DNA from: Planctomycetota bacterium
GTDB taxonomy: Bacteria; Planctomycetota; GCA-002687715; DRQF01
Length of the DNA: 20,490 nt
Assembly: GCA_027001995.1 (NCBI GenBank)
Contig: JALTLO010000141.1
Location: 21,253-41,742, forward strand
Direction of reading: 5' to 3'
A program made the position numbers and the translations under genes. The first letter of the stretch is position 1. Each line of letters starts with the position of its first letter. The notes under the pieces are model-generated. The model saw nothing but the letters and a program-made list of their open reading frames with translations. It made no database searches and had not been told where the DNA came from. Shown piece by piece: positions 1,748 to 19,293 of this stretch.

Positions 1748-1882
1748 TACCCAGAGCGCTGAGTAATCATTCCCCCAATCATTCTTTTAAGATATAGATC
1801 ATTCTGAACGATACTGGTATTGAGAGACTTTGAAACCACGCTGTCCATCCTTCGGGCTGGTCGGTCTTGTGGAGAGAGACGA

Positions 1883-2086
1883 ATGGCGATTCCCGATCGT
1901 GACACGGAGATCGCAATGACGACACCCAGCTCAGGCCGAAAAATTTCGCACTACGCCACACCGGTGAAAGATGATGAACTTGAGTTCATCCGCGCCATCA
2001 AAGCGTTTCAGGACGAAATGAACGTACCATTCCCCAGCTGGAGCGAGGTGTTGCAGGTCTTGAAGAACTTGGGCTACCACAAGTAG
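1883..2086 (+). CDS. Small hypothetical protein (67 aa)
   Basis: ATG at 1883 preceded by GGAGAGAG. The C-terminal ELEFIRAIKAFQ...PFPSWSEVLQVLKNLGY resembles a small uncharacterised protein type I recall from planctomycetes (not verified). Followed by a terminator. Confidence 0.7.
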   Translation: MAIPDRDTEIAMTTPSSGRKISHYATPVKDDELEFIRAIKAFQDEMNVPFPSWSEVLQVLKNLGYHK

Positions 2087-2168: not shown

Positions 2169-2210
2169 GGCCGCCTTGGGAAGAGCTGACCAAAAACGCT
2201 CGACTTAGGA

Positions 2211-2444
2211 TCAGTCGGCGGCTTTTTCGGCCTCAGCACGTTTAGTCATGTAAACCAATGTGCCGATAGTACCCCCAACCATAAGAACCGGCAAAGAAAC
2301 CATCATAACGATGGACATGAACCACTCTTTGGTATCTGGCTTGTTCTCAGCAGAAGCGACCGCTTCCCCACAATTCGGTCAGGCAAAAACATCACTGACC
2401 AAAAAGAGCCACACGGCGATGGTAATGAAGACAAGTCGTTTCAT
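2211..2444 (-). CDS. Candidate small exported, membrane-anchored selenoprotein with UxxC motif (77 aa with UGA read as Sec), last gene of the oxidase operon
   Basis: ATG at 2444-2442 overlaps the cyoE stop (ATGA). Translation: MKRLVFITIAVWLFLVSDVFA-TGA(2381-2379)-PNCGEAVASAENKPDTKEWFMSIVMMVSLPVLMVGGTIGTLVYMTKRAEAEKAAD-TGA(2213-2211). Signal-peptide-like N-terminus, then UPNC, then a TM helix, with a SECIS-like hairpin after the TGA. Confidence 0.72.
2352..2381 (-). promoter_or_regulatory. Putative bacterial SECIS element with its UGA codon
   Basis: mRNA UGA-CCGAAUUGUGG(11 nt)-GGAAGC-GGUC-GCUUCU: a 6-bp stem starting 11 nt after UGA with a GGUC apical loop. Similar geometry and GGUC core to the E. 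coli fdhF SECIS. Confidence 0.62.
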
Positions 2445-3313
2445 GATTGACGATCCACAACCAACAAAAACATCAAGATCGTGATGTGAACAATCGTTCC
2501 CCTCAGCAGAAGTCGAGCCACCATTTCGTCTCGACGGCGATAGAAGAACACACCGAGGCCTAACAGTCCGAGGCCAAGCAGAGGCGCCACCACCCCATAG
2601 GTGACACCGGCCCAACCCAATCGGGCTGGAAGCAGCGTGACCAAAGTCAAAAGACATGAGTTGATCAGAACTTGTCGAGCCGTTCTTTCTCCATCGGGGT
2701 CAACGGAGGACAACATGCGATAGCCTGCTTGGGCGTAGTCTTTGCGATAGATCCAGCCTAAAGCCAAAAAGTGAGGGTATTGCCAAACAAAGAGAATGGT
2801 GAACAGCACCCAAGCTTCTAAGTCGATGTTGGCAGTTACCGCTGTCCACCCCATCATCGGCGGGATAGCACCAGGAATTGCGCCCACGGCCGTGTTCCAG
2901 GGGGTCAGCCGCTTCATCGGTGTATACACCAAGACATAGGAGAGAACGCAAAGGCCTCCCAAGATAGCCGTGAGCCCATTCACGCCCACGGCCAACCAGC
3001 CGACTCCCACAACACTCAGAAGAATGCCATAAATGAGAGCATAGGTTGGCGTCACCTGCCCGGAAGGTAAAGGACGATTTCGAGTGCGCTCCATCAAGCT
3101 ATCGTGACCTCGCTCCAAAAATTGGTTGAGGACGATGGAGCCCCCTCCAGACAAGCCGGCCCCCATGAGCAGATGAAACAGCCTCATCCATTCAACCGCA
3201 CCGGTTTTGGCCAAGAAAAAACCAGCAGCCGTCGTCACAAGAACGACAACCATAGCCCTTGGCTTGGTCATAACCAGATATTTGGCAACAAGAGGACGCA
3301 TCAATGGGATCAA
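2441..3313 (-). CDS. cyoE: Protoheme IX farnesyltransferase (heme o synthase)
   Basis: TKPR, LNQFLERGHDSLMERTRNRPLPSG, YTPMKR, GAIPGAIPPMMGW, WQYPHF, DYAQAG; multiple TM helices. Start is TTG 3313 or ATG 3301. Confidence 0.95.
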   Translation of the reverse strand: MIPLMRPLVAKYLVMTKPRAMVVVLVTTAAGFFLAKTGAVEWMRLFHLLMGAGLSGGGSIVLNQFLERGHDSLMERTRNRPLPSGQVTPTYALIYGILLSVVGVGWLAVGVNGLTAILGGLCVLSYVLVYTPMKRLTPWNTAVGAIPGAIPPMMGWTAVTANIDLEAWVLFTILFVWQYPHFLALGWIYRKDYAQAGYRMLSSVDPDGERTARQVLINSCLLTLVTLLPARLGWAGVTYGVVAPLLGLGLLGLGVFFYRRRDEMVARLLLRGTIVHITILMFLLVVDRQS

Positions 3314-3373: not shown

Positions 3374-5188
3374 TTAGTTCGCTGCTTCGACTGTAGTAGA
3401 AGAAGGAACTGGCGTGCCGTCTTCGATGTGCTGAGGAGCAAAATCTTCCTTCATATCAGGATGACTGAACTCGTAAGGACCACGATAAACTTGGATGGGG
3501 CCGACAAAGTTGCCATGGGGTGGAGGCGTCGGTGCTGCCCACTCCAAGCTGTTTGCTCGCCATGGGTTGTCAGGAGCCTTGGCACCACGATAGAGGCTGG
3601 CAAAGACGTTGATGAAGAAGGGGATTTGGGAAAGGCCCAAACAAATCGCCGAAACTGTCATGAACTGGTTTGCCCAGTGGAAATCAGCCAAGAACTCGTA
3701 ACCCGCGCTGTGCTCTTCACTCCAAGCACCCACAGCGATACGGCGGGGATGCCCTTGGGTTCCCACGTAATGCATCAACATGAACGTGCCGTTCAAGAAC
3801 AACAGTGTCAACCAGAAATGAATCTTGCCCAAGGTCTTATTCATCATGCGGCCAAACATCTTGGGGTACCAATAGTAAACCGCAGCAAAGATAGACATGA
3901 CCGTGGAGGCGAACACCACGTAATGAATGTGAGCAACAATAAAATAAGTGTCATGAATGTGGATGTCCACCGGCGTTGCGGCCATGAAAATACCGGACAA
4001 ACCACCAATGATGAACATACCCACGAAGGACAAAGCAAAGAGCATGGGTACTTCGAAGTGAAGTTGACCCCGCCAAATGGTGCCCAACCAGTTGAATACT
4101 TTGACCGCACTGGGGAGAGCAATAAACATGGTCGACACCATGAAAGTCAGACCAAGGTAAGGGTTCATGCCTGATTGGAACATGTGATGTCCCCAGACGA
4201 AGAAACCTAAACCGGTGATTCCTGCCATGGAGAAGACCATCGGCTTGTAACCAAAAATTGGCTTCCGAGAGAACGTTGCCAGGATGTCGGAGACAATACC
4301 CATGCCTGGGAGAATCATGATGTAAACAGCCGGGTGGCTGTAGAACCAGAAAAGATGCTGAAACAAGAGGACCTGCCCGCCACCAGCTTTGACCACTTGG
4401 CCAACACCGTCTGGACCAGAGTAAATCTGACCAGCCTTCACCAATCCATCTGGGCAGAAGAAACTGGTGCCAGCGACGCGATCCATGAACACCATGATCA
4501 AGTTGGATGCCAAAACGGGTGTGGCCAAAAGCGTCAAAATCGAAGTGATGAAGATGGACCAAACAACCAAAGGCATACGGAAGAGTGTCATGCCAGGAGC
4601 ACGGAACTTGAGCACAGTGGTGATGTAGTTGACAGCACCCATGACACCAGAGAAACCAGTGAAGAGAACACCTAAGGCCCAAAGGGTCACACCGTTGCCT
4701 TCTTGAATGGCGGATAGGGGTGGATAGGCCGTCCAACCAGCTCCACTTGGTCCCCCTTCAACAAAGAATCCAGCCAGCATGAAGATGGCCCCAGGCCAGA
4801 ACATCCAGAAACTCCACATGTTCAGGCGAGGGAAAATCATGTCCGGTGCCCCCAACATGAGGGGAATACACCAGTTACCGAAAAAACCCACCAAGAGCGG
4901 AATAATGACCAAAAAGATCATGACCGAAGCATGCATGGTGACGGCGGCGTAATAGTTCTCAGGAGAGAATTTGCCAAACATAGGAACACTGGTGAAAGGC
5001 CACGCCAGTTGCCAACGCACGGCAATGGCAAGGAGACCGCCCAAGATGAAAAGCAGAATACCGGAGAACAAGAATTGCTTGGCAATCATCTTGTGGTCAA
5101 CAGTGAAGAAGTACTTCTGAATGAAGCTCTCTTCGTGGTGACCGTGATCGCCGTGGTCGGATGCTGCTGCTGAAGCTGCTGCGCTCAT
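3374..5188 (-). CDS. ctaD: Heme-copper (cytochrome c) oxidase subunit I, A2 type
   Basis: DHKMI, TMHAS, PDMIFPRLN (D-channel), GWTAYPPLS, WFYSHPAVY (YS motif of A2), VWGHHMF, AVKVFNW (K-channel), HDTYFIVAHIHY, PRR. Confidence 0.97.
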   Translation of the reverse strand: MSAAASAAASDHGDHGHHEESFIQKYFFTVDHKMIAKQFLFSGILLFILGGLLAIAVRWQLAWPFTSVPMFGKFSPENYYAAVTMHASVMIFLVIIPLLVGFFGNWCIPLMLGAPDMIFPRLNMWSFWMFWPGAIFMLAGFFVEGGPSGAGWTAYPPLSAIQEGNGVTLWALGVLFTGFSGVMGAVNYITTVLKFRAPGMTLFRMPLVVWSIFITSILTLLATPVLASNLIMVFMDRVAGTSFFCPDGLVKAGQIYSGPDGVGQVVKAGGGQVLLFQHLFWFYSHPAVYIMILPGMGIVSDILATFSRKPIFGYKPMVFSMAGITGLGFFVWGHHMFQSGMNPYLGLTFMVSTMFIALPSAVKVFNWLGTIWRGQLHFEVPMLFALSFVGMFIIGGLSGIFMAATPVDIHIHDTYFIVAHIHYVVFASTVMSIFAAVYYWYPKMFGRMMNKTLGKIHFWLTLLFLNGTFMLMHYVGTQGHPRRIAVGAWSEEHSAGYEFLADFHWANQFMTVSAICLGLSQIPFFINVFASLYRGAKAPDNPWRANSLEWAAPTPPPHGNFVGPIQVYRGPYEFSHPDMKEDFAPQHIEDGTPVPSSTTVEAAN

Positions 5189-5236: not shown

Positions 5237-6073
5237 TTATTTCTTCTCATCAAATTCCGATGGGCGCCAGAAACGAAAGTTCTGGGTCGGGCTCTCGTAA
5301 TCTATGCCACCTTGTTTTGCCGAAAGCTCAGCCATTTTGGCGTCCCAATCGTCAGGCTCTAAGACTTCCATGCCAGCACGCATCAGGTAATGGGAAGCGC
5401 CGCAAAGCTCGGCGCAGGCAATTTCGTACTTGCCAGCTTTGTTGGCCTCAAACCAGCCTGTGATGGTGAGTCCCGGAACCAAATCTTGCTTAAAGCGCAA
5501 GACAGGCATGTAAAGGGAGTGAATCACATCAATGGAGCGCATCTGAAGAACAACGGGACGATCCTTGGGGACAATCAACTGGTTCTCCACGGTGAAATCG
5601 TCATCTGTGCCCCACTCGCCATCGGGCCCTTGATAACGGAAATTCCAACTGAATTGTTGGGCCAAGACATGAACTTGGACAGCACCATCTTCGGCGGTTG
5701 GAAAAGTCTCTGGGTCTTTGATGTCTTGCCAGACGCCAAATTGAATCACCGCCAAGAGCATCAGGATGATAGCAGGGATAGCCGTCCAAATGACCTCTGT
5801 CTTATAGTGACCATGGGTATGGTAGGCCTTGCCGCCTTCCTTGGCTCGATACTTGATGATGAAGTAGATCAAGAGCCCTTCTGTGCCAATGAAAACAACA
5901 CCCGTGAGCCAAAAGATCAACCAAAACAGATCGTCGATCTTTTCGGCATGCTCAGAGATCGCCTCAGGAAGAAGGAGACCATGGCCACTTTCTTGGCCAA
6001 AAGCAACCGAGCTCAGGCTTAGGATCGTCAGGATCGGCAAGAGGAGCCGAGCTCCAAAGCGTTTCCAGTTCAT
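5237..6073 (-). CDS. ctaC: Cytochrome c oxidase subunit II (CuA), no fused cytochrome c
   Basis: EVIWTAIP, QQFSWNFRY, DVIHSL, CAELCGASHYLM CuA ligands. Start set at ATG 6073 (MNWKRF) because AAGGAG lies just upstream and a signal peptide follows. Confidence 0.95.
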   Translation of the reverse strand: MNWKRFGARLLLPILTILSLSSVAFGQESGHGLLLPEAISEHAEKIDDLFWLIFWLTGVVFIGTEGLLIYFIIKYRAKEGGKAYHTHGHYKTEVIWTAIPAIILMLLAVIQFGVWQDIKDPETFPTAEDGAVQVHVLAQQFSWNFRYQGPDGEWGTDDDFTVENQLIVPKDRPVVLQMRSIDVIHSLYMPVLRFKQDLVPGLTITGWFEANKAGKYEIACAELCGASHYLMRAGMEVLEPDDWDAKMAELSAKQGGIDYESPTQNFRFWRPSEFDEKK

Positions 6074-6144
6074 AGGGTGATTCTCCTTTTGAGTCCCTAT
6101 TGAGTTCTTCACGGCCCTCGGGCCGTTGTGAGTGAATTTGAACA

Positions 6145-7044
6145 TCAGCGACGGAACTCCGCATTGATGCTTGCGACTTTACCCGCTTCGACAACGATCG
6201 TCTGTGGCGTGGTTTTCATGTCCGCACGCTCATGGGCAAAGCTGATTTCATAGGTGCCAGGGGGCAAATTCTTGATCTCAAAGGAACCATCTTCGCTGGT
6301 CACAGCGTAGAAAGGATGAGTCAGAATAAACACCGGGGCACGCATCCAAGGGTGGATATCGCAAGAGAAGCTGGCGCCCAACTCAGGTTGAGCCAAGAAC
6401 TCGCTGTCCGATTGAGGGCCAGGCTGTGTGTTGTTGATTTCAGGGTTGCCCAGACCAGTGAAGTGATAATTGTGACTGGTATTGTCACTGTTGCGAACCT
6501 GCAACTCTTGCCCAGTCATAGCAGCCACAACATGGGGAACGTAACGGCAACCGTTTTGGTCAACCAATTGGGACTTGGAATAGGGCTCGAAGGTAAAACG
6601 ATTGAAACCCTTGGAGACATAGACCACGACGTTCTTGAGCCCCCCGGCATTCGAGACCAAGAGGTCTTCGGTCCGGAGCTCCCCAGATTGAACGCAAAAA
6701 GGAGTCTTGGAGGTGTTGATCAATTTCGTCTTGGCTGCTTTACCAGCGTATTTGATCAAACCCTTGACTGCACCGGAGTTAGCGATACCTCCGCCAGCGA
6801 TGGCATCCGCCGACAAAACAGCCATGTCCCCAGAAGCCGGGCCAAACTCGCCGTCATCAGAGCTAAAGCCGGCCCCTTCAGTCCCTTTATCTCCCCGATA
6901 GCGAGGATCATGGGCAGCCCGGTACTCTCTGTAATTCTGTGGACCACGACGCTTAGGGGCCCCGCCGTCACAGCCCACGAGGGGCAGTAAACAGGCCAAC
7001 AGAGCCAGTGTGATCATTTGTGATGCGAATTTGCCGTGAGACAT
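6145..7044 (-). CDS. Lipoprotein with cupredoxin-like domain nested in a carboxypeptidase-regulatory-like beta domain
   Basis: Lipobox LVGC; DQNGCRYVPHV, NSDNTSHNYH, CDIHPWM (His...Cys-x2-His-x2-Met, type-1 Cu ligand pattern); DGSFEIKNLPPGTYEI. Start ATG 7044 preferred over TTG 7068. Confidence 0.75.
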   Translation of the reverse strand: MSHGKFASQMITLALLACLLPLVGCDGGAPKRRGPQNYREYRAAHDPRYRGDKGTEGAGFSSDDGEFGPASGDMAVLSADAIAGGGIANSGAVKGLIKYAGKAAKTKLINTSKTPFCVQSGELRTEDLLVSNAGGLKNVVVYVSKGFNRFTFEPYSKSQLVDQNGCRYVPHVVAAMTGQELQVRNSDNTSHNYHFTGLGNPEINNTQPGPQSDSEFLAQPELGASFSCDIHPWMRAPVFILTHPFYAVTSEDGSFEIKNLPPGTYEISFAHERADMKTTPQTIVVEAGKVASINAEFRR

Positions 7045-7353: not shown

Positions 7354-8040
7354 ATGAGCGAATCCTCCGACAGCAACAAAATCGTGATCGGCGTGGTGAC
7401 CACCGCTTGCATTTTCTTGGCCCTTGTGGCGGCCTGGAGTCTCTCATCCCAAAAACTCGACTTAAAGAAGGAGCTCCGAGACCGCAAGAATGTGGAATCT
7501 CCCATCTCCAAGGGGAAGACTGAGACCCTGGGGGCTGACAAGATCAATATTCCCGTCCCACCTTTCCGCTTTCCATGTGCAACTGGGGGGGAATTCGGCT
7601 CTGACGACCTAAAAGGAAAACTCTGGGTGGCGGAGTTCATGTTCACCAGCTGTGGCGGTTTCTGCCCAGAAATGAGCAAAATGACGGAATTGCTCCAAGA
7701 TCGGACAGAAGATCTCCCCGACTTGCATTTTGTCAGCTTCACGGTGGACCCTGAGCGAGACACACTTTTAGCACTGAAAGAATATGGCGAGGAATATCAC
7801 GCAGACAACAAGCGCTGGCATTTCTTGCGGGCCAAATTAGAAGAAGTCCATGCTCTGGGCAGAAAGGGCTTTTTTCTCCTCAATGACACCGACTCCCTGG
7901 TTCACTCTAAGAAAGTGGCCTTGGTCGACCGAAATGGGAGAATTCGTGGTTACTTTGATGGCGCTGGCCCAGAGCGCGTCTCCGACTTCAAGGCTTTGGA
8001 GCTTCTGATTCGAGACATCTATGAAGAAGGTGACCAATAA
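7354..8040 (+). CDS. SCO1/SenC family copper chaperone
   Basis: N-terminal TM anchor; FMFTSCGGFCP (CxxxC), SFTVDPERDT, conserved His in LVHSKKVALVDRNGRIRGY. Confidence 0.93.
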   Translation: MSESSDSNKIVIGVVTTACIFLALVAAWSLSSQKLDLKKELRDRKNVESPISKGKTETLGADKINIPVPPFRFPCATGGEFGSDDLKGKLWVAEFMFTSCGGFCPEMSKMTELLQDRTEDLPDLHFVSFTVDPERDTLLALKEYGEEYHADNKRWHFLRAKLEEVHALGRKGFFLLNDTDSLVHSKKVALVDRNGRIRGYFDGAGPERVSDFKALELLIRDIYEEGDQ

Positions 8041-8465
8041 TGGACCTTGTCGCCGTTCTACCTGCGGTAGACGCAACCCTCAATTTCGTTGCCTTCTGCC
8101 TGTTGATGCTGGGATATCGCCAAGTCAAAGCCGGCGAAGTTAAAAAACACAAAAAGACGATGCTCATGGCCCTCACGGTCTCGGCGCTCTTTTTGATCTG
8201 CTATTTGACTTATCACGCCCTGGGTGAAGAAAAGAAATTCAGCGGAGAAGGGTTCATCCGCAACATTTACTTCTTCATTCTCATCACCCACATCCCCTTG
8301 GCCGCCCTCATGGTTCCGCCAATCCTATTCTTGGCTCACGCCGGAATCACCGAGCGCATTGAACGCCACAAAAAACTGGCCAAGTTCGTGCTTCCGGTAT
8401 GGATGTATGTATCCGTGACCGGTGTCTTGATCTACTTGCTCTTACATGTGCTGTATGGCGAGTAG
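8040..8465 (+). CDS. DUF420 family membrane protein (CtaM-like oxidase assembly factor)
   Basis: LPAVDATLN, HKKTML, LFLICYLTYH, YFFILITHIPLA, HKKLAK, WMYVSVTGVLIY; TAATG coupling with the SCO gene. Confidence 0.9.
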   Translation: MDLVAVLPAVDATLNFVAFCLLMLGYRQVKAGEVKKHKKTMLMALTVSALFLICYLTYHALGEEKKFSGEGFIRNIYFFILITHIPLAALMVPPILFLAHAGITERIERHKKLAKFVLPVWMYVSVTGVLIYLLLHVLYGE

Positions 8466-8493: not shown

Positions 8494-9168
8494 CTACTTG
8501 GCGTGCAAGAACCAAAACAGGCAATACCAAACAACGCCGACGAAATGCCAGTAAAGCATGCAATTGCCGCAGCTGGCTTTGAAATCTTGAAAATCGGCTC
8601 CCGCCCGACCGCGCAAAAAGCATTTTCCCATGAAGAACATGCCCCCCAAGACGTGAAGAACATGGAGAGCGGTAATCATATAGAAGAGCGCGGTGAAATT
8701 GGGGGAACCTTCCAGCACCACCCCAGCTCCGACCAAAGATTTCCACAAGAATACCTGGGACAGGCAAAACCCCAGCCCCAAGACCCAGGTGAGGCCCACC
8801 CGTTTCACCAGCTGAGTACGTTGTTCAGGACGTTTGGCCCCCATGGACCAGAAACCGACCAAGCTCGATGCCAGGATGAAGCAGGTGCTGATCCAAAGAT
8901 CACGGACCAAAGTCGGGGCGTCCGCAGGAGGCCAAGCGCCCGAGTCGCCCCGCAGGATGACTAAGGCCGAGAGAATTCCAGCAAAGAGCATCACCACTGT
9001 GCCGCAGAAGACGACAACTGCTAAGCGGGTGGCGGACACCGGAGGTCCGCTATCATTGGGTTTCTGTGGACCACCCCCTCCACCGCCGCCTCCACCTTCG
9101 CTTGGCGGCCAAGCAACGGGAGGGTCTACGATCTGAGGGTCGTCGAGTATGGCTGATGAACTTGACAT
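8494..9168 (-). CDS. Heme-copper oxidase subunit III family protein (copy A) with Pro/Gly-rich N-terminus
   Basis: MLFAGILSA, WPP, FYMITALHVLHVLGG, YWHFVGVVW; about 5 TM helices; G9 tract at the N-terminus. Confidence 0.88.
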   Translation of the reverse strand: MSSSSAILDDPQIVDPPVAWPPSEGGGGGGGGGPQKPNDSGPPVSATRLAVVVFCGTVVMLFAGILSALVILRGDSGAWPPADAPTLVRDLWISTCFILASSLVGFWSMGAKRPEQRTQLVKRVGLTWVLGLGFCLSQVFLWKSLVGAGVVLEGSPNFTALFYMITALHVLHVLGGMFFMGKCFLRGRAGADFQDFKASCGNCMLYWHFVGVVWYCLFWFLHAK

Positions 9169-9326
9169 GGTCCACCATCATAGCCTCAGATCCCCCTCCT
9201 TGGCAACCCACTGGGGTCATGCGACAATTTGGGTATTCATGCAGTCCTTTGCCTGAAGCCAAATAGCCCCTCTGAATAAAGGCAAGCCGAACCTTGGCAG
9301 TTCTCCCATGATCTCGAATGGCGTCC

Positions 9327-9355
9327 AAAAAAAACGCCGCCCGAGGTGGGCGGCG
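9327..9355 (-). terminator. Rho-independent terminator of the Rieske/cytochrome b/octaheme operon
   Basis: Minus strand CGCCGCCC-ACCTC-GGGCGGCG-T8, about 30 nt after the stop at 9388. Confidence 0.88.
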
Positions 9356-9387
9356 CTTCTAAAGACTTTTGCTAAGCGAAACTTAGA

Positions 9388-12300
9388 TTACTTCGGCGTC
9401 ACAATCGGAACTTCACCAGCGTTATACGCTTCATGCAAGTAACGCATCATCAAGTTGAGATGATCACCCTTGTATGTCTTCAAGTCACCGGTGATCGACG
9501 AAGCCAAGTAGCGCACAAACATACGCTCCTTAATGGAGTCCAATGGAATCTTGAGGGACTTGCCAGTAGCGCTGTCCTTCAAGCGTAACTGCCCCCGCAC
9601 TTCTTTCGGACCGGTTCCCACGATGATGGAACCATCGGTCTTAATAACACGCCATTCTTCTAAGAAGTTAGAAGGCATGTTGGTGCCCGGTAAGAGAGCC
9701 GCAGGATCCGCCAACCAGCGTGACGTCCACTCGGAGCGCAACTTCCGTCCAGCCCACTCCAAGTTAGGAGCGATCACACCTTTTTGAGCCGGATCTCCCG
9801 TTCCGTGGCAACTATTGCAATTCACTTCTTTGAAGACATTTCGTGCCATTTGCAATTCTTGCGCTGTCAATGGAGCTAAGACAGGAGCAACGTAAGGGAT
9901 GGATTGAGAATCCAAAGCGCCAAAGAACTTGACCAAGGTTTGAATCTCACCTTCGCTCATGCGGAAGGTGGGCATCCGAACGTCCAAGTAGTCGCGCAAA
10001 CCGTTGCCATGTAGCTTGGCTTGAGTCTGCGTCGGGTTGCGCAAGAAGTCCGCCAACCATTTTGGATTAGTTCTAAAGCCAATGCCCAACAAAGAAGGTG
10101 GCCTGCTATCGGAGCGCTTGGCCCCTTCATCGGTCTTGCCAACATATTGGGGCAGTGCCCAAAGATCTGGTTCAACTCCAGCTTCAATTTGATGGCAACC
10201 AATGCAGTTGTACTTCTTGACGACCCACCAACCCTTCTGGATGGCCTTGCCCCGCTCGTCTGGGTTATAGCGGAACTCCTCAGGGATCTGAGTTTCCACA
10301 CTGCCTTGGAGGAAGGTCGAGAGAGCCACGATCTCCTTCTCAGACAAACCGAAATCTGGCATCTTGAGACGATCAAGACCATCGGGATCTTCGTAGACCT
10401 TACCCTTGCCGAAAACACCTGGATTCCGAAGCTTCTCTTCGAAGAATGCTTTATGGGTGTAGCGATGGGCCCGCTTGAAACCATGCTCCAAGCGACCAAA
10501 ATCAAGACGTTCTTTTGGCTTCGAACCTTCTTTTGTCAGCTCAGTACCAATGCGGCCCTCGGTTTCATGATCTTTGATCTCATGGCAACCGGAGCAACCG
10601 TAATTGGAAACCAACGCTTTGCCCTGTGCTGCAAATGCTGGATCATTGAGGTTTGCGATTGTCTCGTAATTCACCCCGGAGCCCGTCTTGCTCTTGAGGA
10701 AGGTTGCCACGTTTCTCGCATCTTCCTCTGAGAGTCGAAGATTCGGCATGACGCCGCTGTCTGGCTCCATAATCCACTTGACCAAAAAGTTGTATTCAAC
10801 TTTGTCGCCAACGTAGGAGAGGTCAGTCCCGAAGCCATCGCCAATAGTGACGCCATTATCTTCGATCGTATGACAACCTAAACAACCCCGTTTCTTGAAC
10901 AGAGCCTCACCCATGGTGGCATTGCCTGGAGCATAAGTTCCCACATCCTCACGGATATCGGACTGCTGCCACAAGTACGCCGCAATTTTCATGGCATGCT
11001 CTTTGGCCTGAGCTTCATCCAGATTCTTGAAGAACTGGGGCATTTTCGTCGTTGGACGGAACTCTCTGGGATTGAGCAACCAAGGCAAAAGCCAATCTGG
11101 ACGCACCTTGCTCTTCAAGTTCTTCAGGTTAGGTCCGACTTTTTGCCGCTCTTTCTCCAAGTCCATGCTCTTGGCAACGATTTCGTCACGGCGAGTTTGG
11201 ATACCAGAGATTTGCATGTTCAGCTTGCGCTTGGCATTCAAGTCCCGCTCGCTCTTGAGTGAAACCGCCAAACGGGATTCCTTGTCATCAAGAGTCAAAA
11301 GCTCGCTCTTGATCTTCAAGATCTCTTCGCCTTGAGTGTCAACACCTTCATAACGGTGACAGCCCCAGCATCCTTTGAACTGGAACAAATGGCGAGCTTC
11401 GTTGAAGGCCGAAACTCGTTCGTATTCGACAAGGTTTCCTTTGTCATCCCGAACCCCGTGACCTTTTTCATCCATCTCCACGTAAGGAGAGGGTGTGTAA
11501 TTCAGGTAGATGTCATCTTTGTGGCACTGAATACAACCGGCTTCGAAGCTACCCATCTCTTTTTCAACCGCATCAGGATTGCGTTGAGTCAGTGGGAACA
11601 ACCAGTGGTGGTTCATGCCGTGAGCCAAGTGCTCAGATGTCACCGAGCGTCCGTTACCGTTGTGGCACATGGAGCAGCCGAAACGGCTTGGGTCATGGAT
11701 TTCCAATAAACCCTTGTGGGGATGTGTGGTCCAAACCCCGGCCATTTCCACAGGCTCATCACCAGGCGTGGTTTCATTGATATCCCATTCACGCATGGTG
11801 ACGGGTTCCCTGGCACCAGCGTGGCAGCTTTCGCAACGGTCCACCCAATCAAACTCACCAATGTGAATTTGCAGGATGTCCGTCACACCTTTGCCCTCAG
11901 AACCAAGAAGACCTTTATTGGTCTTCTCCATCAACTTGGCGACGTTCGCGGGCAAAGGGCCATCCAGATTCTTGACGACAAAGTCGTCCAGTTGTTTCTG
12001 TAGAGCACTGGATGGCTTGCTCAAAGCAGCACGCTGGCGATCCAACTTTGATTTGCGAGCCTTGTAAGCATTGAGCTTGGTGGTGATCTCATCAAAGTCG
12101 AGAGACAAGTCTTTGGACTCGCCATCTGTAACCAGGGTGACCGGCAACTTTGTCGCCTTCACGTCAGCCATGAGGCCAAGGATAGTCTCACGGCGTTCGT
12201 CGCTGCGGGCTGTTTCGAGAGAATAACGGTAAGCGCCCAGCTGGGCCCGCGCATTCTTGAAAGCCCCTTGCAAGCTGTCAATGTTGCCCTGTAGTTCCAC

Positions 12301-12618
12301 CAACTCATCAGCGATGGCGGGCACCTTGGCATCCATCGCTTCCTTGGCGGCCTCAAGTTTCTCTTCCAATGCCTTGTAAGCCTTGGAGTCTTTGAGCTTT
12401 GCCAGTTTCTTTTCTTGGGCGGGCTTAAGCACGTCCAAGTAGTTGGAATATACGGTTACGAAATTTTCCTGAATCGCCTTGTATGGGCGGCGTCCAAAGA
12501 ATTCGTCGTATCCTGCCAGGACAACCGATCCCATGAGCACAGCCGACGCCAAAAAGATTGGCAAGCTGAGGGATTTGGTCTGTATTGGGTCCTTGGGGAC
12601 GGGCTGCTTCTCAGCCAT
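9388..12618 (-). CDS. Membrane-anchored octaheme c-type cytochrome (1076 aa) of the Rieske/cytochrome b operon
   Basis: Eight CxxCH motifs (CESCH, CSMCH, CIQCH, CWGCH, CLGCH, CSGCH, CIGCH, CNSCH); N-terminal TM; long helical/coiled-coil segment; repeated GPxL...W...P...MP class-I cytochrome c signatures; AAGGAG upstream. Confidence 0.93.
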   Translation of the reverse strand: MAEKQPVPKDPIQTKSLSLPIFLASAVLMGSVVLAGYDEFFGRRPYKAIQENFVTVYSNYLDVLKPAQEKKLAKLKDSKAYKALEEKLEAAKEAMDAKVPAIADELVELQGNIDSLQGAFKNARAQLGAYRYSLETARSDERRETILGLMADVKATKLPVTLVTDGESKDLSLDFDEITTKLNAYKARKSKLDRQRAALSKPSSALQKQLDDFVVKNLDGPLPANVAKLMEKTNKGLLGSEGKGVTDILQIHIGEFDWVDRCESCHAGAREPVTMREWDINETTPGDEPVEMAGVWTTHPHKGLLEIHDPSRFGCSMCHNGNGRSVTSEHLAHGMNHHWLFPLTQRNPDAVEKEMGSFEAGCIQCHKDDIYLNYTPSPYVEMDEKGHGVRDDKGNLVEYERVSAFNEARHLFQFKGCWGCHRYEGVDTQGEEILKIKSELLTLDDKESRLAVSLKSERDLNAKRKLNMQISGIQTRRDEIVAKSMDLEKERQKVGPNLKNLKSKVRPDWLLPWLLNPREFRPTTKMPQFFKNLDEAQAKEHAMKIAAYLWQQSDIREDVGTYAPGNATMGEALFKKRGCLGCHTIEDNGVTIGDGFGTDLSYVGDKVEYNFLVKWIMEPDSGVMPNLRLSEEDARNVATFLKSKTGSGVNYETIANLNDPAFAAQGKALVSNYGCSGCHEIKDHETEGRIGTELTKEGSKPKERLDFGRLEHGFKRAHRYTHKAFFEEKLRNPGVFGKGKVYEDPDGLDRLKMPDFGLSEKEIVALSTFLQGSVETQIPEEFRYNPDERGKAIQKGWWVVKKYNCIGCHQIEAGVEPDLWALPQYVGKTDEGAKRSDSRPPSLLGIGFRTNPKWLADFLRNPTQTQAKLHGNGLRDYLDVRMPTFRMSEGEIQTLVKFFGALDSQSIPYVAPVLAPLTAQELQMARNVFKEVNCNSCHGTGDPAQKGVIAPNLEWAGRKLRSEWTSRWLADPAALLPGTNMPSNFLEEWRVIKTDGSIIVGTGPKEVRGQLRLKDSATGKSLKIPLDSIKERMFVRYLASSITGDLKTYKGDHLNLMMRYLHEAYNAGEVPIVTPK

Positions 12619-12674
12619 CTGTCGCTCCTTAAATCCTGCTATTGTTCGTTTCGGCCACGGCTATGAACCGTGGG

Positions 12675-13661
12675 TTAAATATTGAACCAAGGGGTTACCC
12701 AAACGTACTTCACGTTAAACGCGAGTCGCAGGATCATTTTGACTGGTAATGACATCATGGTAATCATGAAAATCTGCAGATGAATGTACTGCATGAGACT
12801 CATGCGTGCATACATCGTTGACTTTCGAAACAGGGCATGAAAAATCCCCCCTGCCACCGCACTGTAGGCTAAGCAGACGGCCCCCCCGAAGAGGCCTTTC
12901 CCCATCGCGCTGGTGATGCCGAACATCTCATGAAGATCTACGTTGATTTCGTAGACAACCTTCAAATGATCCCATGTCTCACCAGGATAGAAGAACATCC
13001 ATCCTGGACCTCGCATGAATGTTCCCAAGATGACTAAAGCCACCCATAGGACCAAGAATCCGAAGAGAAAGATAGAAATGGCAAACTTGCGCTGCTTCCA
13101 TGTGTAGTAGCCGTTCCCCATGGGGTTGGGATCGATGTAGGGAATAGCCATCAAGCCACCCACAATGATTCCCGGCAAGATCACCCCAGCAATCCACGGA
13201 TCGAAGTACACCAAAATCTCTTGGAGACCCAAGAAATACCAAGGTGCCTTCGACGGGTTCATGGTTAGGGTCGGATTTGCCGGTGATTCCAAAGGTGCAT
13301 CCAAGAACACCGACCACACAATCAAGAAAGCCGTGACGATAATCGCCGCCAAGAATTCTCGTTTGAGTAGATGGGGCCAGACACTCACGGTCTTGTCCCA
13401 GCTTGGGTGCCAAGGGGCTGTTTTTCTGTGGTGGGTCTTGGCCAAATTCGGATCAGCTTCCAACTGTTCGATCAAACGATCGTTGGCGAAAGCCTGGCGA
13501 AATGCCAGCCACATATAAAAGATCAACAAGACCAGCATGAGGACGATGGGCACGTTGTCTGGCAACGCAATCAAATCCCACAACTGTTGGCCGTCAAATA
13601 TTGCCGGTGGATGAACTTCGAGTTCTGGTTTCATCCCGGACGGTTCACTGAGGAAGAACAT
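12675..13661 (-). CDS. Cytochrome b C-terminal part (subunit IV / QcrC-like) with extra TM segments
   Basis: VWPHLL, APLESPANP, KAPWYFLGLQE (PEWY-equivalent), IPYIDPNP; directly downstream of the cytochrome b6-like gene. Confidence 0.85.
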   Translation of the reverse strand: MFFLSEPSGMKPELEVHPPAIFDGQQLWDLIALPDNVPIVLMLVLLIFYMWLAFRQAFANDRLIEQLEADPNLAKTHHRKTAPWHPSWDKTVSVWPHLLKREFLAAIIVTAFLIVWSVFLDAPLESPANPTLTMNPSKAPWYFLGLQEILVYFDPWIAGVILPGIIVGGLMAIPYIDPNPMGNGYYTWKQRKFAISIFLFGFLVLWVALVILGTFMRGPGWMFFYPGETWDHLKVVYEINVDLHEMFGITSAMGKGLFGGAVCLAYSAVAGGIFHALFRKSTMYARMSLMQYIHLQIFMITMMSLPVKMILRLAFNVKYVWVTPWFNI

Positions 13662-13701
13662 TCAGCCTTCTCTCCCTTAAACAGAATGCCAAAGGCAATC
13701 G

Positions 13702-14556
13702 CTACTTCTTGACTGGTTTCATTTCGCTTTCGAGCATGACAGGAGAAGGGCCAGAAATGGCTCCGTCTTTGCGCACACGCCAGAAGTGAACAATCATCAA
13801 CACACTGGCCATGATGGGGATGGCAATACAGTGCCAGATATAGGCACGGAGCAAAGCATTGGCGTCCACAATGGAGCCACCCAACAAGGCAAAGCGCACG
13901 TCATTGAACGCATTGATTCCGAACTCAGCCGCCAAAGGACCTTCATGCCCCAAGATCGGCGTAGCCCGCGCCATGTTCGTTCCCACGGTGACCGCCCAGA
14001 AACCCAATTGATCATCAGGCAAAAGGTAGCCAGTGAACGACAACAACATGGTGAACAACAACAACTGAACACCGATGGCCCAGTTGAATTCACGAGGGGG
14101 CTTATAGGAACCGGTCATGAAGACACGGAGCATATGGAACCAGGTCGTCATGACCATGGCATGAGCCGCCCACCTGTGCATGTTCCGCAAGATGTTGCCA
14201 AAGGGCACGTCATTCATGATGTAGAGAATGTCGCGAAAGGCCTGCACCTTGGACGGATGATAATAGAACATCAGCAAAACGCCGGTGAGCGTTAGGACAA
14301 TGAACAGATAAAACGTGATACCGCCCATACCCCAAGTGAAGTTGTACCTCACTGCATCTCGGTTGATGCGAGCTGGGTGAAGGTGCAAGAAAACGTTCGA
14401 CAAGACCGCCAAGGAGCGGTTTCTCGGGGAATCGTCAAGCTTGTGCCTAAATACGGATTTCCAAATTTGGCCTTCTTTGAGCTGTTTTTCCAGCTCGGCC
14501 AATTTGTCTTTGTTCGACTTCTTGCCGGAACCTTGGTCTGACTTTGACATGGTCAA
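13702..14556 (-). CDS. Cytochrome b N-terminal part (cytochrome b6 / QcrB-like)
   Basis: TGVLLMFYYHP, RNMHRWAAH...FHMLRVF, YKPPREFNW, FTGYLLP, WH...VHFWRVRK. Start TTG 14556 (GGAGG upstream) or ATG 14550. Confidence 0.93.
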   Translation of the reverse strand: MTMSKSDQGSGKKSNKDKLAELEKQLKEGQIWKSVFRHKLDDSPRNRSLAVLSNVFLHLHPARINRDAVRYNFTWGMGGITFYLFIVLTLTGVLLMFYYHPSKVQAFRDILYIMNDVPFGNILRNMHRWAAHAMVMTTWFHMLRVFMTGSYKPPREFNWAIGVQLLLFTMLLSFTGYLLPDDQLGFWAVTVGTNMARATPILGHEGPLAAEFGINAFNDVRFALLGGSIVDANALLRAYIWHCIAIPIMASVLMIVHFWRVRKDGAISGPSPVMLESEMKPVKK

Positions 14557-14620
14557 TCCCGTCCTCCATTACGGGGTTGGACTCGCTCATTCACGGGCCA
14601 ACTGCAGGTGTTATTAAACC

Positions 14621-15220
14621 TTAAACACCGAGCAACTTAGCACCGGCTGCGTCGAATTTGTCCGCACCATAGAGCTTCAGTTTGTCAACAATAATGGCAC
14701 CGGTGGCATCCAGCTCAACATGGCAACGATCGAGGGGCCGAGGTGCCGGTCCTTCGAAGTTGATGCCGTCCCGGGTGAATCCACTACCATGACATGGACA
14801 TTTGAATTTGTCCTCTGCCTCTTTCCAATCAGGGGTGCAGCCCAAGTGGGTGCATTTCGCAAAGATGACAAATAGTCCCTCTGCGTCCTTCACCACCCAG
14901 ATTCTCTGCCTTGCCTGCCAACTGGTATCCACGCCAATTTCGTAATCGGCTGGAGTCCCAATTGGGAATTTTGTCTTGGGTTCAAACAGCGTCCGTGGGA
15001 AGAAAAACCGCATGAACGCCCCTAATAAGACGAAAAAGAAGCCGCTCATCATCAAACTGACGAAATTACGGCGTTGCTCCCGTGCCATGTCGGCACGCTT
15101 CTCGTCTTCATCATCTTTTACCAAGCGCGCTTTGGGCTTCGTTGGCTTGAGGGCCGCCGCTGCCTGCTGAGGCTTTTCTACCCCATCTGCATTCGCTTGA
15201 TCTTTGTTTTCCTCGGTCAT
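14621..15220 (-). CDS. Rieske [2Fe-2S] subunit of the Rieske/cytochrome b complex
   Basis: RRNFV twin-arginine-like motif plus TM; CTHLGC, CPCHGS, GPAPRPL. Start set at ATG 15220 (GGAG upstream). Confidence 0.95.
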   Translation of the reverse strand: MTEENKDQANADGVEKPQQAAAALKPTKPKARLVKDDEDEKRADMAREQRRNFVSLMMSGFFFVLLGAFMRFFFPRTLFEPKTKFPIGTPADYEIGVDTSWQARQRIWVVKDAEGLFVIFAKCTHLGCTPDWKEAEDKFKCPCHGSGFTRDGINFEGPAPRPLDRCHVELDATGAIIVDKLKLYGADKFDAAGAKLLGV

Positions 15221-15492
15221 CAAATGGCTCCAAGGTCCATCTTTGACCAACTTTTGCGCAATTGTGCGCCAAAGTCGGCAGTTTCATCTATTGCTAAGGC
15301 TCAGGTTAGAAAACACGAAATGCATCTCAACCCGCCGTAGACCACATTCTGTGGCCTTTTAGGTAGTTGGGTCGCGAGTTGCCGACGTTTCCTAACCTGT
15401 TGCCTTGGAATTTACGGAGGATCGGGGCTTTGTGCAACCAGTGAGCTAGGACCTAAATCACTTCTTTCAATAATTCATCTGGCCCAGCGGGA

Positions 15493-15520
15493 TTGCGCCT
15501 GACGCCTGAACGCGTACAAT
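15493..15520 (+). promoter_or_regulatory. Possible sigma70-type promoter for the subunit III/IV operon
   Basis: TTGCGC-16 nt-TACAAT in the divergent intergenic region, about 110 nt upstream of the TTG start. Confidence 0.3.
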
Positions 15521-15628
15521 TGGAGCCACACACCTGCGACAAACTGTCAAGGTAGTTTATTGACGTAGAAATACGATAAGTTAGGTCGCAAGTTACTTAA
15601 ATGTGAACCGGATTGAGGAGGCTGAAAT

Positions 15629-16249
15629 TTGTCTTCAGCAGTTGCAGCTGGCGTAGGAAAAGACGCCCGTGAGTTTTTTGGCATGACACCAGGCAAGTTT
15701 GCCATGTGGAGCTTTATCGCCTCCGATGGCATGGGCTTCGCTGGCCTGTTTGCTGCCTATGCCGCAACCCGCGCCCACGCGGATTGGTGGCCGAATCCAA
15801 ACGACACAGGTGTGCTCAATGTCGACCTGACAGCGCTCAACACCTTCATTCTGATTTGCTCCAGCGTGACCATGGTCTTCGCTCTGCAGGCCTGCAAAGC
15901 GGGCAACCGTAAAGCGCTCAGCGGATGGCTCTTGGCAACGATCTTGGGAGGTTCCGGCTTCCTCGGCATTCAAGTGTACGAATACTATCATTTGGTACAC
16001 GACGGCGTCATTCCTTGGGGCGACAACTTCTCTGCTACCTTCTACTCGCTCACCTGCTATCACGGTTTGCATGTTCTCAGCGGCGTGATCTACCTGACTT
16101 GTATTTGGATCGCATCCCTGCGAGGTCGATACGGACCAGATAACTCGATGCCCATCGAAATCGTCGGACTATTCTGGCATTTCGTCGATCTGGTTTGGAT
16201 TCTTTTGTTTACCTTTGTCTATCTCTTTGAGCCGCTTCCGGCCGGGTAA
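15629..16249 (+). CDS. ctaE: Heme-copper oxidase subunit III family protein (copy B)
   Basis: GAGGAGG then TTG start; GKFAMWSFIASD, NTFILICSSVTM, GIQVYEY, FYSLTCYHGLHV, GLFWHFVDLVW. Confidence 0.9.
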   Translation: MSSAVAAGVGKDAREFFGMTPGKFAMWSFIASDGMGFAGLFAAYAATRAHADWWPNPNDTGVLNVDLTALNTFILICSSVTMVFALQACKAGNRKALSGWLLATILGGSGFLGIQVYEYYHLVHDGVIPWGDNFSATFYSLTCYHGLHVLSGVIYLTCIWIASLRGRYGPDNSMPIEIVGLFWHFVDLVWILLFTFVYLFEPLPAG

Positions 16250-16304
16250 TCAACAGCCTTCAACAACCCCCAATCACGGGTTTCAAACAAAAGGACACGA
16301 GGTG

Positions 16305-16841
16305 ATGAGCAACGCAAAGATTGCAAAACTTGAGGCGAAAGTAAACGAAATCATGGCTAGGCCCACGTATAGCGTGACCCCTGCCTGGCAAGCGGAAGTA
16401 GCCGAAATTCGGGTGCAGGTTGAAGCCATACGCACCGGTCAAGATGTGGAACGTCGAGAATACAACCGCCCCACAATCCATGGGGGGGGCGGTGCCGCTT
16501 TGGCCGCTGCCGGAGGCGCCACGATTGAGGCCGACCATGATGATTCAGATCATCACGCTCCCTACATGGCGATTTTCTTGGCACTGTTGGTTTTGACAGT
16601 TCTGGAATGGAAATGTGATGCTTGGTTTGGCCTGAAGGGCACGACCCTTTGGTCAGCCCTCACCATCATGGCCTTGGTCAAAGCCGTTATGGTGGCCATG
16701 TTCTTCATGCACATGAAGTTCGAACGCAAGACATTCCATCTGCTGGCCATCATTCCCATCGTTTTGATCATTCTGATGTTGGCCTTGGTCTCACCGGACA
16801 CCCACCAACACCTGCTGCAATATCTCCGTTTCCTTCAATAG
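16305..16841 (+). CDS. Cytochrome c oxidase subunit IV family protein with long N-terminal extension
   Basis: YMAIFLALLVLTVLE, ALVKAVMVAMFFMHMKFE; three TM helices; ATG 16305 after GAGG. Confidence 0.88.
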   Translation: MSNAKIAKLEAKVNEIMARPTYSVTPAWQAEVAEIRVQVEAIRTGQDVERREYNRPTIHGGGGAALAAAGGATIEADHDDSDHHAPYMAIFLALLVLTVLEWKCDAWFGLKGTTLWSALTIMALVKAVMVAMFFMHMKFERKTFHLLAIIPIVLIILMLALVSPDTHQHLLQYLRFLQ

Positions 16842-18316: not shown

Positions 18317-18817
18317 CTATCCCCGTTGATGACGTTCCATTAAATCCATCAATTCGGCGTGAACATCTTCCCCATCAAAAACACCACGGCTCTGAAACAC
18401 ACGTTCACCATGAATAAAAAACATGAGTGCTGGAGATTCGACGTTCTTGTAGCGCTTTAATAGAATTTCATTTTTGTCTGCATTGACAAACCCGACCTCG
18501 TAGGGCGGTTTACGACTGGCCATGTTCTCGACTTGTTCGATCATGCATTGGTCGCCGATGCTCCACGCACGATAGAAATGAACCAAAACCGGATGTTCCG
18601 CCTTCAAGACACCCGCGTCAAAGTCAGCGTCCGTAAACTCCCGAACCGTTTGCTTGGGTTTCCTGTTCCAGATGGCCACGACAAACATCACCACCAAAGG
18701 CACAATCATGACAAACCAAATGGTGTTGTCGAAGAATCCATCTTGGCTATCTGTGGCTGGAGAATGGCGAACTTGGTCTTGAAGAAAAAACACCGTTATG
18801 TAAAAAGCGAGGTTCAA
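18317..18817 (-). CDS. Membrane-anchored thioredoxin-fold protein lacking CxxC
   Basis: TDADFDAGVLKAEHPVLVHFYRAW, VNADKN, SPALMFFIHGE typical of thioredoxin; active site reads WSIGD. TTG start at 18817 overlaps the upstream TGA, with AAGGAG before it. Confidence 0.78.
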   Translation of the reverse strand: MNLAFYITVFFLQDQVRHSPATDSQDGFFDNTIWFVMIVPLVVMFVVAIWNRKPKQTVREFTDADFDAGVLKAEHPVLVHFYRAWSIGDQCMIEQVENMASRKPPYEVGFVNADKNEILLKRYKNVESPALMFFIHGERVFQSRGVFDGEDVHAELMDLMERHQRG

Positions 18818-19293
18818 GGCAAGACTCCTTCTTCTTGAGCTGCCAAATACTGTCTCTTGAGAATGCGCCAGCGATATAACGTGAGGGCCCACAGGAGGGT
18901 CCCTGGCACAACTTGAAGCAGCAAAATGCCATGGACGGCCCTATCGGACCAAGCAAGAGGGTCAGTGAAGAGTGGCGGGAGCAAGCTCAACACGCCTAAA
19001 GCCATTAACAGGCCGCCGCTGTAAGAGCGAAACCCCATGTCTCGAAGCAGTGTGCCATAGAAGACGGTCCACGCTCCCAAGAACTGGCCAAGGTAGAGTT
19101 CCGTCCCCCAAGAGTACATGGCCGGGTGGGTCTGAAAAAACGACACCAAGACAATCTGGACCAGGACATAGAATGCCACGACGTGGATCTTTCGCAGAAC
19201 CATATCCCAAACCCGATCATTGAAGTCTGTGACTTCCTCTCGGGTCCTGGGTACATCTGACTTCGACGATTTCGAGGTTTCTTCATAAGTCAT
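18814..19293 (-). CDS. Hypothetical membrane protein (about 4 TM)
   Basis: Four hydrophobic segments; stop overlaps the thioredoxin-like start. Start uncertain (ATG 19293 chosen); the longer ORF call is antisense to the + strand lipoprotein. Confidence 0.65.
   Translation of the reverse strand: MTYEETSKSSKSDVPRTREEVTDFNDRVWDMVLRKIHVVAFYVLVQIVLVSFFQTHPAMYSWGTELYLGQFLGAWTVFYGTLLRDMGFRSYSGGLLMALGVLSLLPPLFTDPLAWSDRAVHGILLLQVVPGTLLWALTLYRWRILKRQYLAAQEEGVLP

Follow-up and report, generated by a model that had tools for sequence, protein, structure and literature searches.

An in-frame UGA in a planctomycete oxidase operon: evidence for a probable selenoprotein family with a Sec/Cys-variable motif

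The stretch of DNA considered here (the window: 20,490 nucleotides (nt) of contig JALTLO010000141.1, assembly GCA_027001995.1, from a Planctomycetota bacterium) is a respiratory gene cluster, as judged by a Pfam scan of its open reading frames (ORFs). On its minus strand, the ctaB gene of a cytochrome c oxidase operon overlaps a small frame with an in-frame TGA after 21 codons. Does this TGA stop translation, or is it read through, and if so, as which residue and in what kind of product? A preliminary description, made from the sequence alone, proposed an exported, membrane-anchored selenoprotein. Comparison with genomes of the phylum leads us to conclude that the UGA at 2381-2379 is very probably decoded as selenocysteine (Sec), aided by an in-gene selenocysteine insertion sequence (SECIS) hairpin at 2367-2352. 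The best overall explanation of the locus, in which we have good though not full confidence, is a Sec-decoded exported membrane peptide in an oxidase-assembly context. The gene would then belong to a new selenoprotein family in that context, with a motif that varies between Sec and Cys. Its features are as follows.

2211..2444, minus strand: candidate gene for a selenoprotein (77 codons and a stop), with orthologues in 115 of the 401 genomes searched in the phylum
2382..2444, minus strand: signal-peptide-like segment, codons 1-21 (MKR, hydrophobic core, V-F-A), from hydropathy and translation
2379..2381, minus strand: in-frame UGA, putative Sec, residue 22; TGA in the motif in 54 genomes, 41 at this position; Cys in other members
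2370..2372, minus strand: Cys25 codon TGT, second position of U-x-x-C; invariant column in the 21-member alignment A1; TGA here in the C-x-M-U subgroup
2352..2367, minus strand: SECIS-like hairpin GGAAGC-GGUC-GCUUCU, stem from 11 nt after the UGA, GGUC loop at nt 21-24 from the U of UGA
2247..2324, minus strand: predicted transmembrane helix, residues 41-66, with conserved S44, I45, M48 and P52, from hydropathy, alignments and an AlphaFold2 model
2201..2217, minus strand: terminator-like hairpin over the stop codon, then a T-run; consensus match only

The start codon ATG at 2444-2442 overlaps the ctaB (cyoE) stop TGA at 2443-2441, forming an ATGA overlap (minus-strand text at the start, ...GTCAATCATGAAAC...; wider text around 2444, ATCATGAAAC). 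With TGA read as U, the translation is MKRLVFITIAVWLFLVSDVFA-U-PNCGEAVASAENKPDTKEWFMSIVMMVSLPVLMVGGTIGTLVYMTKRAEAEKAAD, 77 residues, and ends at the stop TGA 2213-2211; after the Sec, the product runs PNCGEAVAS...WFMSIVMMVSLPVLMVGGTIGTLVYM-TKRAEAEKAAD. A signal peptide-like segment is followed by U-P-N-C, some 15 linker residues, one transmembrane helix and, at the end, a charged tail. Hydropathy analysis gave two hydrophobic peaks, at residues ~4-20 and 42-66, and an AlphaFold2 model with 21 family members as input placed helices at residues 2-18, 25-30 and 38-76 (mean pLDDT 82). The elements of the preliminary description (ATGA coupling, TGA at 2381-2379, P-N-C, transmembrane helix, charged tail, 77 amino acids) were all found where it had placed them. 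We hold with high confidence, on comparative grounds, that 2444..2211 (minus strand) represents a real, translated gene, the last cistron of the coxB-coxA-ctaB operon, joined to it via the stop/start overlap.

The residues preceding the Cys or Sec are A-x-A or A-x-G, where x is bulky or charged (F, Y, E, W, Q or H); in 65 Cys forms of the family, A at positions -3 and -1 of the first Cys is nearly invariant. The lipobox has a consensus of the L-[AS]-[GA]-C type, and the observed pattern seems to suit signal peptidase I better. Because a near-invariant A-x-A or A-x-G directly precedes the first Cys/Sec, the product is probably exported, with a predicted signal peptidase I cut after V-F-A.

Conservation of the in-frame TGA

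When 101 related genomes were searched in six frames, the gene turned up in 21, 17 with the in-frame TGA and four without. The TGA forms of this first set carry it at the first motif position, as U-P-[N/S/G]-C or U-x-G-C, and the remaining four are C-P-x-C, with a Cys aligned to the TGA at column C22 of alignment A1 (4/21). A profile search of the 401 genomes of the phylum gave matches in 115 (121 rows), and 55 rows contained TGA; one of the 55 is junk that also contains a TAA. Through this search 37 further TGA loci were added: 24 U-x-x-C, 12 C-x-M-U, with TGA at the second motif position, and one S-C-U. Both searches together place the TGA form in 54 of the 401 genomes, from 18 GTDB families, a recurrence that takes the arrangement seen in the window beyond chance.

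A profile search of 1.84 billion representative proteins returned 3697 clusters at E <=0.001 and 1071 at E <=1e-10. Every one of the 25 top hits fetched reads A/G-C-P-x-C and is a Cys form. When 65 Cys forms were aligned, C27, P28, C30, S49, I50, M53 and P57 were invariant.

The frame downstream of the TGA is under purifying selection: the ratio of nonsynonymous to synonymous changes per site (pN/pS) was 0.09-0.30 in six of six pairs, and genomes G000 and G001 differ past the TGA by 24 synonymous and 10 nonsynonymous changes in 49 codons. The TGA itself recurs in run X3, another sample within the same study, where a 158-nt contig spans 2348-2505 with zero differences, TGA included; assembled contigs, not raw reads, served for this check, and run X1 may be the window's own source. 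Run X1 also holds a second contig, of 601 nt, that matches the window only at 2345-2387 (the UGA and the hairpin) with three differences and is probably an orthologue from another organism in the sample.

Could the TGA be an ordinary stop, leaving a pseudogene, an assembly error or a 21-residue leader followed by an unrelated short ORF? Standard ORF calling does end the gene at the TGA, as the preliminary description had foreseen, and a word-indexed protein search with the full-length read-through product found nothing, no near-identical entry being returned. Set against this are the TGA kept in 54 genomes of 18 families, the selection on the downstream frame, the existence of Cys homologues and the independent contig with the same TGA. 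On the comparative data the ordinary-stop explanation is already contradicted, and we consider it extremely improbable. Since standard calls cut the gene at the TGA, Sec forms are probably missing from protein databases.

These results also bear on what the preliminary description expected of a true selenoprotein. Of the other 20 genomes matched in the first search, 16 retain the TGA, Cys aligns with it in Cys-form homologues, and conservation past the TGA is evident from both alignment and pN/pS. The assembly error that it allowed for is contradicted by the independent contig, itself assembled and not raw reads. Its remark that TGA is a normal stop nearby holds as well, TGA ending both ctaB and the small gene. 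Finally, the Sec machinery on which it made the proposal depend is present: selA (510.9 bits), selB (334.3), selD (357.2) and tRNA-Sec (68.2) are all over cut-off in the window's own genome (5.2 Mb, 204 contigs, 92% complete), and its selD carries one in-frame TGA. In this genome (G000), selA, selD and tRNA-Sec lie side by side on one contig (C148:21750-24409; L001, L010, L012).

Across the family, selA was over cut-off in 53 of the 54 TGA-form genomes versus 19 of the 42 Cys-only genomes tested; no test statistic is attached to this contrast because the genomes are related to one another. The sole TGA-form genome without selA over cut-off is a 67%-complete assembly.

Motif variants were found beside the two main TGA forms. 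The C-x-M-U loci form a twelve-genome A-Q-C-x-M-U subgroup (L064, L065, L067-L073, L075-L077) with Sec at the second motif position. L074 (genome G210), next to COX3/COX4, has a G-S-C-U-K-Q variant in which Cys and Sec are adjacent. Two genomes of one genus, G185 and G262, have two paralogues each (L042/L104 and L049/L100), a Sec form U-P-S-C after DUF420 and a Cys form G-C-A-M-C. Three Cys forms (L092, L098, L109) have three cysteines, C-x-A-C-P-M-C.

The hairpin downstream of the UGA

Inspection of 40 UxxC genes revealed GGUC at nt 21-24, counted from the U of UGA, in 34 of them, within a stem of 6 bp beginning 11 nt past the UGA. The stem varies in sequence (GGAGGC/GCCUCC, GGAAGC/GCUUCC, GGCGGC/GCCGCC, GGACGC/GCGUCC, GGACGU/ACGUCC). 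Pair 17-28 is A-U in 23 genes and C-G in 13, and pair 18-27 is G-C in 24, C-G in five and A-U in four. Some of the compensatory changes are silent ones at third codon positions (GAA/GAG for Glu together with GCU/GCC for Ala). The covariation score of the 40 genes was 0.379, compared with 0.116 ± 0.021 for shuffled sets, none of 500 shuffles reaching it; with slid partners it was at most 0.133. RNAalifold on the 40 sequences recovered four hairpin pairs, each with compensatory changes; with the first 17 sequences as input it had missed the hairpin.

The hairpin is specific to TGA forms. For the Cys control, 40 Cys-form genes were fetched and the motif could be placed in 38. All six pairs are formed in 31/40 TGA forms versus 0/38 Cys forms, which have at most four of the six, and GGTC stands at nt 21-24 in 34/40 versus 1/38. 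In the C-x-M-U group, where the UGA lies 9 nt further in, reading of the fold output placed G-G/U apical loops 22-29 nt from the UGA. The hairpin thus shifts with the UGA, which suggests that the element follows the UGA rather than a protein coordinate; stems in this group are interrupted, and the evidence for the element is weaker there.

A published model of bacterial SECIS elements (bSECIS) asks for an apical loop of 3-9 nt, a stem of 4-16 bp, G in the first two loop positions, a UGA-loop distance of 16-37 nt and a minimum free energy (MFE) of -7.5 kcal/mol or lower (PMC13188914, Fig. 2 legend). The window's element, with a GGUC loop, a 6-bp stem, 17-nt spacing and an MFE of -9.4 over 33 nt, fits this model as a borderline case. 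It is a weaker A-U variant of the stem: the hairpin by itself scores -7.1 kcal/mol, and a further outer pair brings this to -9.4. When the published model was applied in a strict version, 30/40 UxxC, 3/12 C-x-M-U and 4/42 Cys genes passed. No hairpin passed the strict test at the locus of genome G002, from the window's genus, where both motif codons are TGA (U-P-S-U; L022:1546-1557). By eye, a weak CGU-GGUC-ACG hairpin is seen there 27-30 nt past the second UGA. The double TGA may reflect a diselenide form, decay of the gene or an error in sequencing.

Several of the structural results weigh against Sec decoding guided by this element. The window's hairpin fails the strict hairpin-only energy test, single-sequence folding energies do not stand out from those of shuffled sequences (71 nt, z = 0.62; 33 nt, z = -1.04), and an Rfam scan of the window gave no match. 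Nine of the 40 UxxC genes are without the full six-pair hairpin at this place and fold differently, and the pass rate of the C-x-M-U genes on the strict test is weak. The genes without a textbook hairpin, those nine and most of the C-x-M-U group, would be compatible with UGA being read as another residue, such as Cys or Trp, through near-cognate decoding or a suppressor. Such read-through does not account for a hairpin that is specific to TGA forms at a fixed distance from the UGA, with G-G/U loops 22-29 nt from the displaced UGA of the C-x-M-U genes, nor for selA in all but one of the TGA-form genomes; moreover, TGA terminates both ctaB and the small gene itself. We regard insertion of another residue as very improbable. 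A tRNA scan of the window found none.

Genomic context and possible function

On the minus strand the window carries a CarboxypepD_reg-like ORF, coxB, coxA, ctaB and then the small gene, while SCO1 and DUF420 are divergent on the plus strand. The neighbours relevant here are the following.

2441..3313, minus strand: ctaB/cyoE, UbiA family, haem O synthase type, 290 residues (PF01040, 192.6 bits); translationally coupled to the small gene
3374..5188, minus strand: cytochrome c oxidase subunit I (PF00115, 481.8 bits)
5237..6145, minus strand: cytochrome c oxidase subunit II (PF00116, PF02790)
7354..8040, plus strand: SCO1/SenC with motif C-G-G-F-C (Pfam scan)
8040..8465, plus strand: DUF420 membrane protein, directly followed by the small gene in most other lineages

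Beyond DUF420 come COX3, the multihaem cytochrome c, the split cytochrome b, Rieske, a second COX3 and then COX4. A bc-type complex (Rieske, split cytochrome b and a 1076-residue multihaem cytochrome c) occupies 8494-16841, with the two COX3 genes and COX4 flanking. An 88-residue ORF at 1820-2086 (plus strand), between the small gene and an IF-2B-family gene, has no family match.

The arrangement COX1-ctaB-small gene is found in six of the 21 first-set loci, those of the window's own family. At 11 of the 21 the small gene stands directly after DUF420, ten of these with SCO1 upstream; one locus reads COX3-small gene-SCO1-DUF420, two are divergent from COX3-COX4 and one is cut by a contig end. 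The 37 second-set loci were surveyed by local tblastn with the window proteins: SCO1 and/or DUF420 lies within 1.5 kb in 27, COX2 or COX3/COX4 in two, and neither in eight, namely two at contig ends, five of one genus and one in G243. A cox, SCO1 or DUF420 gene is thus within 1.5 kb at 20/21 first-set and 29/37 second-set loci. Six of the twelve C-x-M-U loci follow SCO1-DUF420 or DUF420. Within Planctomycetota, the link to SCO/DUF420 clusters that the preliminary description had put forward holds.

Co-occurrence gave a similar picture. DUF420 is present in 170 of the 401 genomes and is held by 109 of the 115 genomes with the small gene; a small-gene match was found in only six of the 231 genomes without DUF420, and two of those six are junk or weak. 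PCuAC occurs in 13 of the 401 genomes, one of which has the small gene. Neither PCuAC nor Cox11 was found in the window's own genome (92% complete). A CtaA/COX15 gene is present elsewhere in that genome, and the idea that DUF420 and the peptide together replace haem A synthase was rejected on this ground.

After signal-peptide cleavage, some 20 residues would lie in the periplasm, with Sec22 leading this stretch. The C-terminal transmembrane helix, with its invariant Ser, Ile, Met and Pro, would tether it, and the charged tail would be cytoplasmic. The Sec/Cys pair may serve SCO1 and the CuA/CuB sites by binding Cu(I), by switching between selenol-thiol and selenylsulfide states, or by both, and Sec could act as a reactive nucleophile or a soft ligand where no thioredoxin fold tunes a cysteine. 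Since Sec is found at either motif position, and at both in G002, both residues are likely to be chemically active; the position of Sec fails to tell copper binding from redox exchange. Gene context suggests that Sec22 and Cys25, possibly joined by the invariant Met48 at the helix's outer end, form a membrane-tethered Cu(I) and/or selenol-thiol redox site that works with SCO1 and DUF420 on the copper centres of an aa3-type oxidase, a proposal for which we see roughly even chances. As to the function of the site taken by itself, copper handling falls a little short of even, a pure redox relay is rather unlikely, and something else altogether is somewhat more unlikely still.

A pure selenol-thiol relay would make the protein a minimal TlpA or DsbA that keeps the cysteines of SCO1 or CoxB reduced or oxidised and does not carry copper; it would be a genuine selenoprotein all the same. 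The C-P-x-C motif with its invariant Pro speaks for it and resembles redox active sites such as CPHC of DsbA and CPYC of glutaredoxin. The sole thioredoxin-domain ORF of the window is without CxxC. Further, Sec occurs at either position and at both in one genome, the same pattern that the GOS paper (PMC2398784) reports for thiol oxidoreductase families. On the other side, the protein has no thioredoxin fold and an ectodomain of only ~20 residues, the invariant Met beside the site suits a copper ligand, and the failure to find PCuAC and Cox11 in the window's genome leaves a gap in copper delivery. None of these points against a relay is decisive. The thioredoxin-domain ORF itself is membrane-anchored, lies at 18317-18892 (minus strand) and has W-S-I-G-D-Q-C; as a TlpA-like partner it is unsupported, having no CxxC.

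Alternatively, the product could belong to the oxidase itself as a small structural subunit, or be a membrane factor for metals or stress in general, comparable to MerT; in neither case would it be an assembly factor. The gene closes the coxB-coxA-ctaB operon in one family and adjoins COX3/COX4 in other lineages, six loci have no cox-related neighbour within 1.5 kb, and Table 1 of PMC13188914 includes Sec-containing MerT-like and heavy-metal ATPase motifs. A subunit or general metal factor accords poorly with the commonest position, directly after SCO1-DUF420, and with a presence that tracks DUF420, and there is no Pfam match to MerT or any oxidase subunit family. We consider it improbable.

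Some points also weigh against the proposed part in oxidase assembly. Six loci (the five from one genus and G243) have no cox-related gene within 1.5 kb; Pfam scans of two of them, L067 and L077, showed unrelated neighbours; 61 of the 170 DUF420 genomes have no detected family member; and the functional evidence is inferred from neighbourhood and co-occurrence among related, non-independent genomes. L067 adjoins a PQQ/BamB-like propeller and an MFS symporter, and L077 adjoins DksA.

The boldest form of this reading, which we put forward as a tentative and somewhat doubtful proposal, makes the protein the first selenoprotein whose sole task would be to help build an aerobic respiratory oxidase. 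A selenopeptide without a fold and, once the signal peptide is removed, with a free N-terminal Sec, it would form either a membrane-surface Se/S copper(I) site with Cys25 and Met48 or a selenylsulfide switch, and would feed SCO1 and CuA/CuB, substituting in Planctomycetota for PCuAC, Cox11 or TlpA; Sec would have shifted freely between the motif positions in different lineages (UxxC, CxxU, UxxU). Whatever its exact role, the gene represents a widespread, unnamed family that gene callers cut short or overlook. To the prokaryotic selenoproteome it would add a family found often in a single phylum (54 of 401 species genomes), set in aerobic respiration, lacking a thioredoxin fold and with Sec at either motif position. 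It also points to an unstudied partner of SCO1/DUF420 in lineages where PCuAC and Cox11 were not found, so that copper loading of the oxidase in these bacteria becomes a directly testable question.

Comparison with known families and systems

No Pfam or NCBIfam model was over cut-off for the 21 members or the 25 Cys forms. The only curated model near the family is DUF6814 (PF20664), which gave 24.3 bits for P0092, a Cys form (cut-off 25), an E-value of 5.6e-05 for L035 and 22.8 bits for G012; it was over cut-off in 0/21 members, 0/25 Cys forms and 0/5 genomes, and scores below cut-off for every member tested do not establish a relationship. Where names are given at source they are 'hypothetical protein', one from a Planctomycetota metagenome-assembled genome, and the ESM Atlas holds only 'hypothetical protein' clusters, from Planctomycetota and Acidobacteriota.

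Table 1 of PMC13188914 (May 2026), an inventory of 119 prokaryotic selenoprotein families, lists no such family. When members were compared with these 119 families, no Pfam, NCBIfam or TIGR model was over cut-off, entries defined only by cd or PTHR identifiers being left out. No such family appears in the accessible parts of PMC9312934, PMC2398784 or PMC12013277, supplements excluded, and nothing relevant was found in the accessible literature on selenoproteins in Planctomycetota, cytochrome c oxidase assembly or DUF420, including PMC12808453. The preliminary description, which knew of no selenoprotein in an oxidase-assembly role, agrees with this literature, with the nuance that Table 1 of PMC13188914 includes a Sec-containing TlpA-family disulfide reductase besides the MerT-like and heavy-metal ATPase motifs. 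That Sec can stand in metal-binding CxxC motifs or in reductases of the TlpA type is therefore known already; the present family and its context are not.

The Sec-containing metal-binding proteins of that table share with the small protein a Sec in place of Cys in a short CxxC, and some are membrane proteins. They differ in that their models do not match it and in that its context is a respiratory oxidase, not mercury or efflux genes. TlpA-type Sec reductases (PMC13188914, Table 1) are likewise exported Sec redox proteins. They have, however, a thioredoxin fold of more than 150 residues, unlike the 77-residue peptide described here, which has no fold match. TlpA-type proteins reduce Sco and CoxB in some bacteria.

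PCuAC (PF04314) and Cox11/CtaG (PF04442), which deliver periplasmic copper to the oxidase, are possible functional analogues with no similarity to the small protein in sequence or fold. The distributions of PCuAC and the small gene are nearly exclusive, and many genomes have neither protein. SCO1/SenC (PF02630), a copper chaperone and thiol-disulfide protein of CuA assembly, has a thioredoxin fold, is anchored at its N-terminus and carries CxxxC together with a His. The small protein gives no PF02630 match; its motif is [U/C]-P-x-[C/U], its ectodomain spans some 20 residues and its anchor is C-terminal. What the two would share is a cysteine pair tethered to the membrane and facing the periplasm; most lineages encode both in one operon, and the window holds both genes.

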